40,000 nt of DNA from an uncultured Rivularia sp. (GTDB lineage Bacteria; Cyanobacteriota; Cyanobacteriia; Cyanobacteriales; Nostocaceae), in the NCBI GenBank assembly GCA_963665115.1, contig OY762007.1:7180679-7220678 (forward strand). The letters are read 5' to 3'. Below the pieces are notes generated by a model. That model was not told where the DNA came from, made no database searches, and worked only from the letters and a program-made list of their open reading frames with translations. Made by a program: the position numbers and the translations under genes. Shown piece after piece: positions 33,337 through 37,260 of this stretch (positions within the stretch are counted from its first letter, which is position 1; every line of letters starts with the position of its first letter).

Positions 33337-33579
33337 TCAATCAAAATTACGTCGAAATCTACGATCAATTTTATCGGTCTTTTTACGATTGCAACTAAAG
33401 CATAAAGTTTGTAAGTTGCTGATATCGTTGGAACCACCACGAGCTAAAGGGATAATATGGTCAATTGTTAAATCGGTTTCACCATGTTGTTTACCACAGC
33501 TTTGACATTGGTATTTATTCCGTTCAAATACATATTTTCTCACTGCTGAAGGAATGGGAATACGCGGTGTTTTGCTCAT
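33337..33579 (-). CDS. HNH endonuclease (small, stand-alone or C-terminal domain of a fusion)
   Basis: 80 aa. CQSCG…DHIIPLARGGSNDISNLQTLCFSCNRKK has two CxxC pairs plus the H-N-N catalytic core. Confidence 0.8.
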   Translation of the reverse strand: MSKTPRIPIPSAVRKYVFERNKYQCQSCGKQHGETDLTIDHIIPLARGGSNDISNLQTLCFSCNRKKTDKIDRRFRRNFD

Positions 33580-34012
33580 AGAAGTTTTTAAAAGAGATTG
33601 TTTCTATATTATCTTGTGTAAATGTTTCTTCAGCTTCTTGTTCTTGAAGAGAGAAATCTAGCAAAACTTTTAAATCAATATATTCTTGATTATAATTTCC
33701 TTGACTTGAAAAGTCTAAAATAATTTTGATTTGTAATTCATCTAATCGTCTAATTTGATCGAAGGCAATCAATTCACATTGAATATCTTCTTTTAACCAA
33801 AATTTCCATTCGATGCGGTTATATATTCCTTGGTTGTTTACTTCTCTGAAATATTTTTTAATCAATTTATTTTTGCAGCAAAAATTTAAATTGCCCTTTC
33901 TTGGTTTAAAATCCTTAACAATACTCTCTTTAATTTGATTTGTGTTAAAAACGATTTTGTTTAGAACAATAAATTCGTTCTCTTCCGTAAAAGACTCAAA
34001 ATTACAATGCAT
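33524..34012 (-). CDS. Hypothetical protein, possibly a divergent KGK-like domain
   Basis: 162 aa. …WKFWLKEDIQCELIAFDQ…ELQIKIILDFS…QEQEAEE parallels the W-F-x-E-x-x-C-E-x-L … I-K-x-x-L-E-F … acidic-tail layout of KGK proteins, but lacks the KGK triplet. The last 19 codons overlap the HNH start out of frame. Confidence 0.45.
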   Translation of the reverse strand: MHCNFESFTEENEFIVLNKIVFNTNQIKESIVKDFKPRKGNLNFCCKNKLIKKYFREVNNQGIYNRIEWKFWLKEDIQCELIAFDQIRRLDELQIKIILDFSSQGNYNQEYIDLKVLLDFSLQEQEAEETFTQDNIETISFKNFYEQNTAYSHSFSSEKICI

Positions 34013-34227
34013 ACTTATGATTTAGCTTTATATTCAAGATAGTTAATTTTTGAGAAGCCAATTCGATCGCACAGTAAAATTTTTATGCGTGAAAATAGGT
34101 GACGATGATATAGATTTCATCTTAATCGCGTAAATGAAACCTTTATGATTATTATGTCCGCTTATTTACCTGACAAACATTAAATATTACAAGACGGAAA
34201 TTATATTTAATAAAACTATTTCAAATG

Positions 34228-34668
34228 TTATGCAGCATACATCATGTCGTCAAAAGACAATTTAGGCTGTTGAACTTGATGTTCTTCAGATAAGAATTCT
34301 AAGTTAAACTCAATTTTAGCTATTTTGCTAGAATCTTTCTCATTGGGAAAGAAATCTATAGATGACTGAGTTCTGATCTTTCCTTTCTGCCAGCTTGTAG
34401 CACCAAGTCTAAGAATCTCGCAATGATTCCCTTCTTCTGAGGAAGATAAGGTGACGCTGATATTGCAATAGCTAAAAGATGTATTGATTAATTCATATAT
34501 TCTTTCTTTGCTGTTACAACCATCATTTTCTTTTGTGAGAAGATAGTTCACCTTCTGCCACAACTCATTTTCTAACTGTTGCTTAAATTGACTAAATTTA
34601 ACCAGACTGCCGTTGTATGACAAAACATCGTCATCGTTGCAACTCAAAGATTTGAATTTACTTTCCAT
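34228..34668 (-). CDS. KGK-domain protein
   Basis: 146 aa. …NDDDVLSY…GNHCEILRLGATSWQKGKIR…IEFNLEFLSEE…LSFDDM matches the cyanobacterial KGK domain as I recall it (DDVLS…CEVLKLG…WQKGKxRIK…LEFxPDE…PLDDIR). Confidence 0.6.
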   Translation of the reverse strand: MESKFKSLSCNDDDVLSYNGSLVKFSQFKQQLENELWQKVNYLLTKENDGCNSKERIYELINTSFSYCNISVTLSSSEEGNHCEILRLGATSWQKGKIRTQSSIDFFPNEKDSSKIAKIEFNLEFLSEEHQVQQPKLSFDDMMYAA

Positions 34669-34751
34669 ATTCGCTTACATCATGTACTACAATTTCCAAT
34701 TAAGTTACCAATCTTTTTACAGTTTCTCTGTTACCAAGACAACATCAATTG

Positions 34752-35045
34752 TTAAACTTCTATAGTTTCAGCTACACCGTTATTTTCAAACGATGCACTA
34801 TCAACTATTTCTGCCTCCGGTGACTCGATTACGGGTAATAAATAATCGTACAATTGCATTGCTTCTAAGCAACCGTTAATGGCAGACACGGATTGATTGA
34901 AACTAGCAATTTTATCTTTCGCTGCATCCAATCGTCGCTTGTTATCAGCAACTTTCTCTTGCGCTTCTTTTACTAAAGTTTTCTCTAAATAAGCACGCGC
35001 TTGAGGATACTGCTGCAAAATTTCGTCACTTTTGATATCCGCCAT
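34752..35045 (-). CDS. Hypothetical helical protein, or the C-terminal extension of the dynamin-like protein
   Basis: 97 aa, predicted helical/coiled-coil by eye. The 100-nt spacer upstream has no stop codon in this ORF's frame. Confidence 0.45.
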   Translation of the reverse strand: MADIKSDEILQQYPQARAYLEKTLVKEAQEKVADNKRRLDAAKDKIASFNQSVSAINGCLEAMQLYDYLLPVIESPEAEIVDSASFENNGVAETIEV

Positions 35046-35145
35046 TGGTAAAAGCTGAGTTTTAAAGCTTTGATTAATGGTTTGTCGGAATGTGATGCGA
35101 ATTGTTCTGCTAACTTTGGGTTCAAAATCTAACTTTAACAGTTGT

Positions 35146-37260
35146 TTAATTGCAGGTTTCAGCTTCTACCATACTTTCACAATCAAAAGTTTGAGAAGTT
35201 TGCTGCAATGTCTGGCGAAACTGATAAATTGAAAAAGTACCTTCATCATAAAATCTAGGACTTTCTCTAACAAATCTGTCGCACTCTACCCGCGCGGCAT
35301 TTTGTAAAGCTAGAGAAATCTGCTTTTCTAACTTACCTAATTCTTGTTCTAAACCTCCATCATTGCCAAGCAAACGGTACAATTGTTTATAATATTCAGC
35401 CTTACGAATTCTGTCATTCAACCTTTGAAAGAAATTGGCAACAATTTTCTCAGAATATTCTACTAAAATATCTTCCAATTGATTCGCAAGATAGTAAAGT
35501 GCCTCTACCAAAATGGCAATTAAAGGTGCTGTTGCGTTGCGAGGATGACTTAATGTCGCACGTTTATAGGTGTCGGCAACAGAAAAAGTATCTAGTAATT
35601 CATCCAAACGGTGAATCATTCTGGCGCGTAATTGATTAAAATCCGCTTCAAATTTATCGCAAGCATTAGTCACAACTTGGTTAACTTCTTCTGCAATATG
35701 CTCGCGAAATTCGTTTCCTACTTGCTGCAATTGCTGATTGAGACGTTGCAATTCTTGGGCTTTCATAGCCTCAATTTCTTGCGGTTGGCTATCTAATTCG
35801 CGCCGTATTTCTTGATAATATTTCTTAATTGGAATACAAATATCTTCTAAATCGTCAGCCAAATGTTTAAATAACTCGGGACGTTTTTCTTGAGTAAGAT
35901 AGCGAGTAATTGCTGCTTTAAATTTCTCAACACCGCTATCTTCAATTAGTTGATTAACTAATAAGGTTCCTTGTTCTGATAGAATTCTGACATAATTCTG
36001 ATTCTGACTTTCAAAATTATTTACAGAAATCCGAAATTTATCAGCAGGTAGTTTACCAGAAGCAGTACAGTAACGTAGAAATTCGTAAACAAATTGTGGC
36101 GTATTTTCTTGTGATTCTTTCTTATAATTTATGTTATCACTTATTCTGTCGGTAATTTCAGCACTGGTTTTATCAATTACTTGATGAATATCGGCAAATA
36201 CAGTATCTAAACCAAACCTATCTTTCTGACTAGTTTGTTTAATTTGACTGCCATAAAATCCCAACAATCCACTGGTTTTAAAAACCCTACTGCCATACTG
36301 AAACTGAGTACCAATTAAATTATTCAGCCTTTGCTTCAAATCGTTATTGTACCAACTTTCATCAATTCGATTAAAAACGTAAAAAACTCTATCCCTAATT
36401 CCTGGATTATCCCTTATTACTTCTAAAAGTTGAGTTTCAGCCTTTGTCATATCACCCATCGAAGCAGGTTTTAAGACACATACCACCGCAGAAGTATCGG
36501 GATGCTGAATTTTTTCATAAGTCAACCGGGCATCTTTTTCTACAGGCGCATCAATACCAGGAGTATCAATAATTACGTTACCATCTTGTAAAAGTCGATG
36601 GTTGCAATAATATTCAATTCGCTTTAAAACCGCGCTATTACTTCCCCGACGCGCATATCCCGCAGCTTCCTTAAGGTTATTAAAATTAAACTCTTCCATC
36701 GAGTAAGTAGCATTATTTATCGTATGAATGTGCTGACGATTTGCTACATATCCCGACAATAATAAAATTAACGCTTGAGCCTGTTTCGCACGTTCGGATT
36801 TACTTTCACCACCCTCTTGCCCGATGATAGCTTCACATCCTTGACGCAATAATTCAATTGCATCATCTCGATTAATATTCTCAACCTTGTGCAATCCTAA
36901 CTGCTCGCATAAAGAAAATACCTGTTCTCTAACTTCTTGCTCGCTCAAAAAGGTGAGAACAACCTTTTCATTATCGGGATGTGCATACTCTATTTTGCAT
37001 TCCGTACCCGTAGCGTGTCCTTCTGCACTATAGAGCAATTCCCTCTCCAGAAGCGCATTAATCAGCATTGATTTACCCGCACTAAAGGCACCGGCAAATA
37101 CAATTTCAAACTTTGGAGAGATTGCTTTCCTCAGCGAAGTTTGCACTGGGGTAAGATCGTAAGCAGCCAAAGACGGTTCTTGCTGTAAAAATCGCGTTAG
37201 AGAATCTACTTGTTCCTTTAGATTTTGGCATTGAGGCAGCAGTTCTGCCATATGTAGCAT
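35146..37260 (-). CDS. Dynamin-family (bacterial dynamin-like) GTPase
   Basis: 704 aa. G1 GAFSAGKS, G3 DTPG, G4 NRID, followed by ~400 aa of helical stalk-like sequence. I saw no obvious hydrophobic paddle. Confidence 0.85.
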   Translation of the reverse strand: MLHMAELLPQCQNLKEQVDSLTRFLQQEPSLAAYDLTPVQTSLRKAISPKFEIVFAGAFSAGKSMLINALLERELLYSAEGHATGTECKIEYAHPDNEKVVLTFLSEQEVREQVFSLCEQLGLHKVENINRDDAIELLRQGCEAIIGQEGGESKSERAKQAQALILLLSGYVANRQHIHTINNATYSMEEFNFNNLKEAAGYARRGSNSAVLKRIEYYCNHRLLQDGNVIIDTPGIDAPVEKDARLTYEKIQHPDTSAVVCVLKPASMGDMTKAETQLLEVIRDNPGIRDRVFYVFNRIDESWYNNDLKQRLNNLIGTQFQYGSRVFKTSGLLGFYGSQIKQTSQKDRFGLDTVFADIHQVIDKTSAEITDRISDNINYKKESQENTPQFVYEFLRYCTASGKLPADKFRISVNNFESQNQNYVRILSEQGTLLVNQLIEDSGVEKFKAAITRYLTQEKRPELFKHLADDLEDICIPIKKYYQEIRRELDSQPQEIEAMKAQELQRLNQQLQQVGNEFREHIAEEVNQVVTNACDKFEADFNQLRARMIHRLDELLDTFSVADTYKRATLSHPRNATAPLIAILVEALYYLANQLEDILVEYSEKIVANFFQRLNDRIRKAEYYKQLYRLLGNDGGLEQELGKLEKQISLALQNAARVECDRFVRESPRFYDEGTFSIYQFRQTLQQTSQTFDCESMVEAETCN

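Follow-up and report, generated by a model that had tools for sequence, protein, structure and literature searches.

The 40,000-nucleotide (nt) window analysed here, positions 7,180,679 to 7,220,678 of contig OY762007.1 from an uncultured Rivularia sp. (assembly GCA_963665115.1), carries on its minus strand a gene cluster that begins with a dynamin-family GTPase and ends in a small HNH gene. An earlier sequence-only reading had listed five minus-strand open reading frames (ORFs) between 37260 and 33337 and proposed them as an undescribed conflict or defence module. All five ORFs are present at these coordinates, but they amount to only four genes, because ORF1 and ORF2 together form a single dynamin gene. 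The cluster comprises, in one orientation, a SynDLP-type dynamin, a KGK gene, a KGK-like paralogue and an 80-amino-acid (aa) HNH gene. The whole is an unremarkable example of the known SynDLP/KGK-clade cluster, and its stranger appearance here comes from a probable one-base assembly error. Its features, in which BSE stands for bundle signalling element, are the following:

35146..37260, minus strand: ORF1, residues 1-701 of the true dynamin (BSE1, GTPase domain, BSE2 and stalk), from the match to Slr0869/7ZW6 and Dynamin_N
35157..35159, minus strand: frameshift site, AAA where every relative has AA, from the alignment with relatives
34752..35156, minus strand: the C-terminal 134 residues of the dynamin in the +1 frame (linker and BSE3 helix), colinear with SynDLP 683-807
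34752-35045, minus strand: ORF2 of the sequence-only reading, within the dynamin C-terminus
34228..34668, minus strand: ORF3, KGK-domain protein of 146 aa, from PF08872
33524..34012, minus strand: ORF4, divergent KGK-like putative paralogue of 162 aa, from a profile-profile match to KGK
33337..33579, minus strand: ORF5, stand-alone mini HNH protein of 80 aa and predicted nuclease, from HNH_5 and HNH
37286..37332, minus strand: conserved region upstream of the dynamin and candidate promoter/operator, nearly invariant in 15 Rivulariaceae loci

In a phmmer search of the PDB, residues 4-702 of ORF1 match residues 1-682 of the 812-residue chain of SynDLP (Slr0869, PDB 7ZW6; E = 3.2e-276), and ORF1 also matches Dynamin_N (PF00350) at 5e-17. 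The GTPase motifs are in place (G1 GAFSAGKS at 57-64, DTPG, NRID), and residues 57-71 form an extended P-loop, GAFSAGKSMLINALL, of the type typical of cyanobacterial dynamin-like proteins and defined as GxxxxGK[ST]x[LI]NAL[LI] (PMC5827413). The assignment of ORF1 to the dynamin family therefore stands, but not its separation from the neighbouring 97-aa helical ORF2, which had been taken for a gene of its own. ORF2 has no Pfam match, and by itself it aligns with SynDLP 719-807 (E = 1.7e-11). The 100-nt “spacer” ahead of it encodes PAIKQLLKLDFEPKVSRTIRITFRQTINQSFKTQLLP in the +1 frame, which aligns residue by residue with SynDLP 683-718, and the joined spacer and ORF2 peptide is colinear with SynDLP 683-807 (E = 8e-35). 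Where relatives read GCTGAACCTG (GCTG-AACCTG), the window reads GCTGAAACCTG, with one extra A at 35157-35159. Removal of one A at this site yields an 835-aa protein, and it is only with this base removed that the gene is colinear with full-length SynDLP (BSE1-GTPase domain-BSE2-stalk-BSE3). We compared 45 full-length orthologues, 67-98% identical, taken from contigs that represent one genome per species (Rivularia, Calothrix, Nostoc, Fischerella, Coleofasciculus and others), and each consists of one uninterrupted ORF, 804-840 aa long, that reads ...MVEAEPAIKQLL... across the site. From this colinearity and continuity, ORF2 is the predicted BSE3 helix, that is, the dynamin's own C-terminus rather than an additional gene.

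Translation of the dynamin probably begins at M4 (ATG at 37251), the counterpart of SynDLP M1 in the alignment. In SynDLP, a disulfide between C8 and C777 joins BSE1 to BSE3 and tunes GTPase activity. Cys11 of the window dynamin aligns with C8 and Cys59 of ORF2 (Cys797 in the repaired protein) with C777, so that the predicted disulfide pair is kept. SynDLP hydrolyses GTP, oligomerises independently of nucleotide, has a fission-type architecture, and binds and perturbs anionic membranes (PMC10104851). GTPase, oligomerisation and membrane activity have been shown only for this orthologue and are predicted by homology for the window protein.

The next gene begins 83 nt beyond the dynamin stop codon. 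ORF3 was correctly recognised as a KGK protein: it matches PF08872 at 1.1e-17, with 65 bits against a cut-off of 25.6, and contains SWQKGK. In 29 of the genome loci fetched with the dynamin, a KGK ORF comes immediately 3' of it. Such a downstream KGK gene defines the “KGK clade” of cyanobacterial dynamin-like proteins, of which SynDLP is a member (Jilly 2018, PMC5827413; PMC10104851).

ORF4 had been described as similar in layout to ORF3 but without the KGK triplet, and profile comparison agrees. It has no Pfam match, PF08872 included, and the triplet is replaced, yet the profile of its family aligns with the KGK profile (hhalign probability 71-88%, E = 4e-5 to 4e-7). The alignment spans the core ...W..G.DCEIL...(KGK)...EF, placing DIQCELI against G.DCEIL and IKIILDFS against K.K..EF. 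This core is strongly conserved in 13 ORF4 orthologues, in which length differences preserve the reading frame. ORF4 was found only in Rivulariaceae, and most of it is missing from L001 and L003, the closest relatives, as well as from L047 and L053. Other lineages carry a second KGK gene in its slot, and in L033 and L064 two KGK genes occupy the position. Its last 19 codons overlap the start of the HNH gene by 56 nt. We read ORF4 as a putative degenerate KGK paralogue.

The KGK genes vary far more than their neighbours. KGK identity to homologues outside Rivulariaceae is 23-31%, against mean pairwise values of ~74-77% for dynamin and HNH. In 31 metagenome loci fetched with the HNH gene, the number of KGK copies between dynamin and HNH is zero in 5 loci, one in 19, two in 6 and three in 1. 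Outside Rivulariaceae, KGK proteins (L019-L064 alignment) end in ...E(S/T)ESPLDDLRR(M/I)I after an acidic linker; Rivulariaceae have ...LSFDDMxYAA in place of the SPLDDLRR motif. This C-terminal motif looks like a short docking peptide.

The spacing and composition of the cluster are less uniform than had been described. Instead of short spacers throughout, there are gaps of 83 nt and 215 nt and the 56-nt overlap between ORF4 and ORF5. The impression of an AT-rich block is borne out for ORF4 (GC 0.274), the spacer ahead of it (0.27) and, mildly, ORF3 (0.345); dynamin (0.374) and HNH (0.362) lie at the window mean of 0.373.

Upstream of the dynamin, ~90 nt are nearly invariant across 15 Rivulariaceae loci, and the sequence farther upstream diverges. 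This block contains a palindrome, GTAAnnTTAC, at 37323-37332 and an inverted repeat, GCGTATA-N19-TATACGC, at 37286-37318 that spans a TAGAAT -10-like hexamer; it is partly recognisable in Pelatocladus, Nostochopsis, Amazonocrinis and Coleofasciculus. The interval 37286-37332 is probably the promoter and operator of the dynamin, and the genes of the cluster are probably co-transcribed from this conserved candidate promoter. The dynamin upstream region has no Anabaena-type LexA box. In Synechocystis, SynDLP and its neighbours (slr0868-slr0871) are jointly up 6-16-fold in a lexA-disrupted mutant.

Farther upstream, ~190 nt from the dynamin start, the minus strand has a GGGG-loop-CCCC hairpin at 37451-37467, with a T-rich run after it. 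Its stem is kept in most aligned Rivulariaceae relatives and its loop is variable (ggggtctaacccc, ggggttagacccc, ggggtgtgacccc). The repeat boundary that had been placed at 37440-37470 is this hairpin, found in most aligned relatives. More generally, the “dispersed-repeat debris” said to border the cluster consists of no more than a handful of 13-23-nt matches to other parts of the window.

ORF5 is the HNH protein it was taken for. It matches HNH_5 (PF14279) at 5e-22 with 78 bits and HNH (PF01844) at 2.1e-18 with 66.6 bits, both over the cut-offs, and has two CxxC pairs and the series D40-H41...N55...N64. An alignment of 18 homologues from several cyanobacterial orders, 70-95% identical to ORF5, has a mean column identity of 70% and 33 invariant columns, including C25, C28, D40, H41, N55, C60, C63 and N64. 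The solved structures nearest to the HNH profile are 5H0M, 4H9D and McrA (6GHC). By these residues, ORF5 is a predicted nuclease with its zinc-binding and catalytic positions intact.

The pairing on which the sequence-only reading was built survives comparison with related genomes, where the dynamin keeps conserved, co-oriented KGK and HNH neighbours. Of the genome loci fetched with the dynamin, 25 have the HNH gene downstream in the same orientation. A search that started from HNH and ignored the dynamin recovered the order dynamin-(KGK)n-HNH in Microcoleus, Nodularia, Cuspidothrix and Ancylothrix, with different outer flanks each time. In an HNH-anchored metagenome sample, counting only the 40 loci with at least 3.5 kilobases (kb) of upstream sequence, a dynamin lies upstream on the same strand in 31. 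Dynamin and HNH divergences are correlated across 54 loci (pairwise identities, r = 0.67, Mantel p = 0.001). The linkage of HNH to the dynamin is real and broad across many filamentous cyanobacteria. It has been tabulated before: a supplementary table of Jilly 2018 lists an “HNH nuclease” downstream of three KGK-clade members and a “restriction endonuclease” downstream of a fourth, and the main text of that paper never mentions the HNH neighbour (PMC5827413). Our literature search found no paper discussing a dynamin-HNH module in cyanobacteria, and the HNH gene is the one under-described point of the cluster. The claim that the composition is undescribed is accordingly narrowed: the conserved, co-oriented dynamin/KGK/HNH cluster holds, but the dynamin is a SynDLP orthologue, the dynamin-KGK pairing is published, and the HNH gene already stands in the 2018 table.

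Several observations weigh against a functional tie between HNH and dynamin, and they could suggest that HNH is a long-lived neighbour with its own function and promoter, the functional unit being dynamin plus KGK. Nostoc keeps the HNH gene beside GH57 and Na/Ca-exchanger genes, with the dynamin (with or without KGK) elsewhere. Nodularia has the order dynamin-HNH-GH57, with GH57 and Na/Ca-exchanger genes as neighbours of HNH as in Nostoc, and HNH may therefore belong with those genes. The two genes are also lost independently, the HNH core being deleted next to an intact dynamin in L012 and L014 and most of the dynamin next to an intact HNH in L061. No dynamin-KGK, KGK-HNH or dynamin-HNH fusions occur among 200 KGK representatives or the HNH matches. 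Retained synteny alone is weak proof of function, because a PCC gene on the other side of the dynamin, apparently unrelated to it, stays adjacent across Nostocales in the same way (31 of 55 dynamin-fetched loci, in Rivulariaceae, Fischerella and Coleofasciculus). The PCC gene, however, is present in only 4 of 30 HNH-fetched loci, against 31 of 40 for the dynamin. Moreover, dynamin and HNH are adjacent on one strand in Nostocales, Microcoleus, Ancylothrix, Coleofasciculus and one Leptolyngbyaceae metagenome-assembled genome (MAG) while both outer flanks change, and in several lineages little or no space separates HNH from the KGK gene ahead of it (a 4-nt overlap in L033 and a spacing of 12 nt in L064, in addition to the overlap with ORF4 here). 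We consider mere neighbourhood unlikely and lean slightly towards a functional coupling of HNH to the dynamin, as these genomic patterns would suggest.

The proposal of a defence or conflict module fares less well. In its most specific form it would be a dedicated anti-phage system of the abortive-infection type, with the dynamin as sensor or remodeller of the membrane where infection occurs, KGK proteins as adaptors or sensors, and HNH as the nuclease that degrades the DNA of phage or host. The combination of NTPase and nuclease in a conserved cluster is consistent with this, as are the repeated losses of parts of the cluster and the high divergence and variable copy number of the KGK genes, a pattern expected of an arms-race component. 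There are also precedents for dynamin-like proteins in phage resistance in DynA and LeoABC, and the authors of the SynDLP study propose membrane repair after phage infection (both in PMC10104851). On the other hand, PADLOC, which the sequence-only reading had suggested running, reports no system at the locus. It returns only generic HNH matches together with LeoA and LeoBC matches at the level of the P-loop, LeoA covering residues 12-73 only and LeoBC a short stretch of its profile. The NCBIfam models for LeoA and DynA score far under their cut-offs (20.9 bits against 325 and 31.5 bits against 1600, respectively). The surroundings are not those of a defence island: the flanks consist of housekeeping genes both here and in relatives, with identities that differ between lineages. 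We found no copy of the dynamin on PLSDB plasmids or IMG/VR viral contigs, and HNH in phages and plasmids is represented by generic homologues only (≤51% identity). Dynamin and HNH are conserved like housekeeping proteins, which is atypical for mobile defence genes, and Nostoc keeps the genes but unlinked. Inheritance looks vertical and chromosomal, because the dynamin and HNH divergences track each other. Thus, the cluster is, as judged from these comparisons, an old, vertically inherited and dispensable chromosomal operon and no mobile defence-island cassette, and a dedicated anti-phage role appears doubtful.

One other gene in the window may be recorded here. A plus-strand ORF at 22813-25401, separated from the operon by ~8 kb, encodes a protein of 862 aa in which pentapeptide repeats accompany an N-terminal TRADD-like domain (PF20694, 1.5e-13). 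Such TRADD-N domains have been linked to conflict systems in prokaryotes.

Among known systems, the SynDLP/KGK clade (Jilly 2018; Gewehr 2023; 7ZW6) is the closest. Once the frameshift is repaired, the window dynamin is colinear with SynDLP over its full length, and it shares the extended P-loop (GxxxxGKSxLINALL), both disulfide cysteines and the downstream KGK gene. It differs in the one-base insertion, probably an artefact, that interrupts the gene, and the cluster differs in having a second, apparently degenerate KGK-like gene and a terminal mini-HNH gene. BDLP of Nostoc punctiforme (Npun_R6513) is likewise a cyanobacterial dynamin-like GTPase, but it belongs to the “Tandem A/B” clades of paired dynamin genes, has a paddle-type fusion-dynamin architecture, lacks KGK or HNH neighbours, and is absent from the PDB matches of ORF1 at E ≤ 0.01. 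Bacillus subtilis DynA is a membrane-active dynamin-like protein reported, as PMC10104851 cites, to contribute to phage resistance, but it is a two-headed fusion without a nuclease partner. A DynA-type two-headed dynamin was rejected for the window on the NCBIfam score and on its single GTPase domain. LeoA/LeoBC (“Dynamins”/Eleos), listed as a defence system, also consists of dynamin-family GTPases, but of three dynamin-like components without KGK or HNH, where the window has one dynamin gene. Membership in Eleos was rejected on the P-loop-only matches and the low LeoA score.

Two further comparisons concern the combination with a nuclease or with DNA. In McrBC, an oligomerising GTPase is encoded beside a nuclease, McrB being an AAA+ GTPase and McrC a PD-(D/E)xK nuclease. 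The likeness of neighbouring GTPase and nuclease genes is a functional analogy only, with no homology and no evidence here for modification-dependent restriction. The E. coli protein CrfC/YjdA is dynamin-like and has a DNA-related role, and a link between dynamins and DNA is therefore not unprecedented. Several orthologues of the window dynamin bear the automatic Joint Genome Institute (JGI) label “replication fork clamp-binding protein CrfC”; among characterised proteins, SynDLP rather than CrfC is the nearest relative.

The origin of the split in the dynamin gene is illuminated by its neighbours, as two unrelated genes within 10 kb carry insertions of the same type. A cytochrome P450 gene at 28966-30358 (plus strand) is divided into ORFs of 264 aa and 193 aa, matching positions 13-275 and 282-451 of Pfam p450, with the junction at ~29745-29777. 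One extra G at ~29750 changes AGGAC to AGGGAC inside the AGHET motif; the junction reads GCAGGGACATGAA, and GCAGGACATGAA would read LAGHET. Similarly, a GT2 glycosyltransferase gene at 38339-39335 (minus strand) is divided into ORFs of 171 aa and 144 aa by one extra G at ~38882, TGGAC becoming TGGGAC. The window reads TGGTGGGACT here, and five relatives (L001, L003, L004, L005 and L007) read TGGTGGACT within a single ORF of ~330 aa. Both genes are continuous in relatives. In the sibling chromosome-scale MAG assemblies L002 (10587-11028) and L015 (10594-11035), the KGK gene is broken by a change of GAAC to GAAAC, and the L015 dynamin gene has a one-base insertion of the same kind at ~8280. All 5 frame-breaking indels examined in the window and the two sibling MAGs duplicate a purine in the context G-R-AC (GRAC to GRRAC). 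Because all five events share this context, they suggest that base calling erred systematically, perhaps at a modified motif.

The split of the dynamin is most likely a one-base assembly or base-calling error, since 45 orthologues are continuous and neighbouring genes carry the same type of insertion. That it is instead biologically real, with BSE3 made as a separate 97-aa protein that acts in trans and is perhaps held to Cys11 by a disulfide, or with the two parts joined by a programmed +1 ribosomal frameshift, is highly improbable: the frameshift does stand in the deposited genome, whose dynamin protein (P0133) is the truncated 701-aa form, the Met with which ORF2 starts is kept in SynDLP (M719) and almost every orthologue, and the +1 frame opens 5 codons ahead of the dynamin stop, but the orthologues are continuous down to those 96-98% identical, like G-R-AC insertions occur in two unrelated neighbouring genes and in genes of two sibling assemblies, and no slippery or stall motif is evident by eye at GAA-ACC. 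Taken jointly, the identity of the dynamin as a SynDLP orthologue and the artefactual nature of its split can be held with high confidence. The insertion is then the most likely source of both the “truncated dynamin” and the “extra small ORF”, and gene-content novelty from such genomes needs a prior frameshift check.

Overall, we consider it likely that the locus is a cyanobacterial KGK-clade dynamin operon, vertically inherited and accessory, that encodes an 835-aa SynDLP orthologue, a KGK protein, a degenerate KGK-like paralogue and an 80-aa HNH protein. In this operon, the KGK proteins would serve as accessory or adaptor subunits of the dynamin, a role suggested by their fast evolution, their 0-3 copies and their usual ...ESPLDDLRR end. 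HNH would be a long-standing partner, and the membrane-bound dynamin assembly may be where its nuclease activity is deployed or controlled when the cell responds to stress. An intact HNH gene travelling with the dynamin across cyanobacterial orders is a modest lead to the physiological role of SynDLP-type dynamins, and the linkage leads to the hypothesis that the dynamin is tied to nucleic acids, in defence or in DNA handling.

A stronger version, which we put forward tentatively and regard as possible if rather speculative, is that dynamin-(KGK)n-HNH is a genuine three-component machine, ancient in cyanobacteria, that cuts DNA at stressed membranes. The SynDLP-type dynamin would assemble on stressed or breached membranes, and rapidly evolving KGK adaptors would couple it to the mini-HNH through their conserved C-terminal ...SPLDDLRR peptide. 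The mini-HNH would then cut DNA: either that of invading phages or plasmids, as a “core” defence passed on vertically, or that of the host where it is caught at membranes or septa. If true, such a machine would supply a physiological function for SynDLP.

The genes flanking the cluster in the window encode P450, GFA, DUF6745, PCC, glycosyltransferase, inositol monophosphatase and M23 peptidase proteins. On the 3' side of HNH, the DUF6745, GFA and small-ORF genes at 32026-33336 have no counterpart in the 8-kb flanks of the closest relatives, and the 585-nt gap that follows HNH (GC 0.40, few short dispersed matches) is for this reason a synteny breakpoint. On the other side, the PCC/DUF296-domain gene (37607-38017, plus strand; PF03479, 5e-32) is divergent from the dynamin, and decayed remnants of it are found in several Nostoc. 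An RsmB-F-type methyltransferase gene adjoins the dynamin-HNH cluster in two distant lineages, lying upstream of the dynamin in Nodularia (L058/L059, 3158-4138) and 3 nt after HNH in Ancylothrix (L064, 7249-8229).

Between the P450 gene and this breakpoint, a 541-nt unit is duplicated in tandem at 30364-31478, the copies being 87% identical. Each encodes a 93-96-aa ORF on the minus strand (30437-30718 and 30969-31259) that is hydrophobic-looking by eye, and the units are separated by a 76-nt repeat with its own inverted repeat (GGTTGGGTTAGACGCA...TGCGTCGTAACCCAAC).

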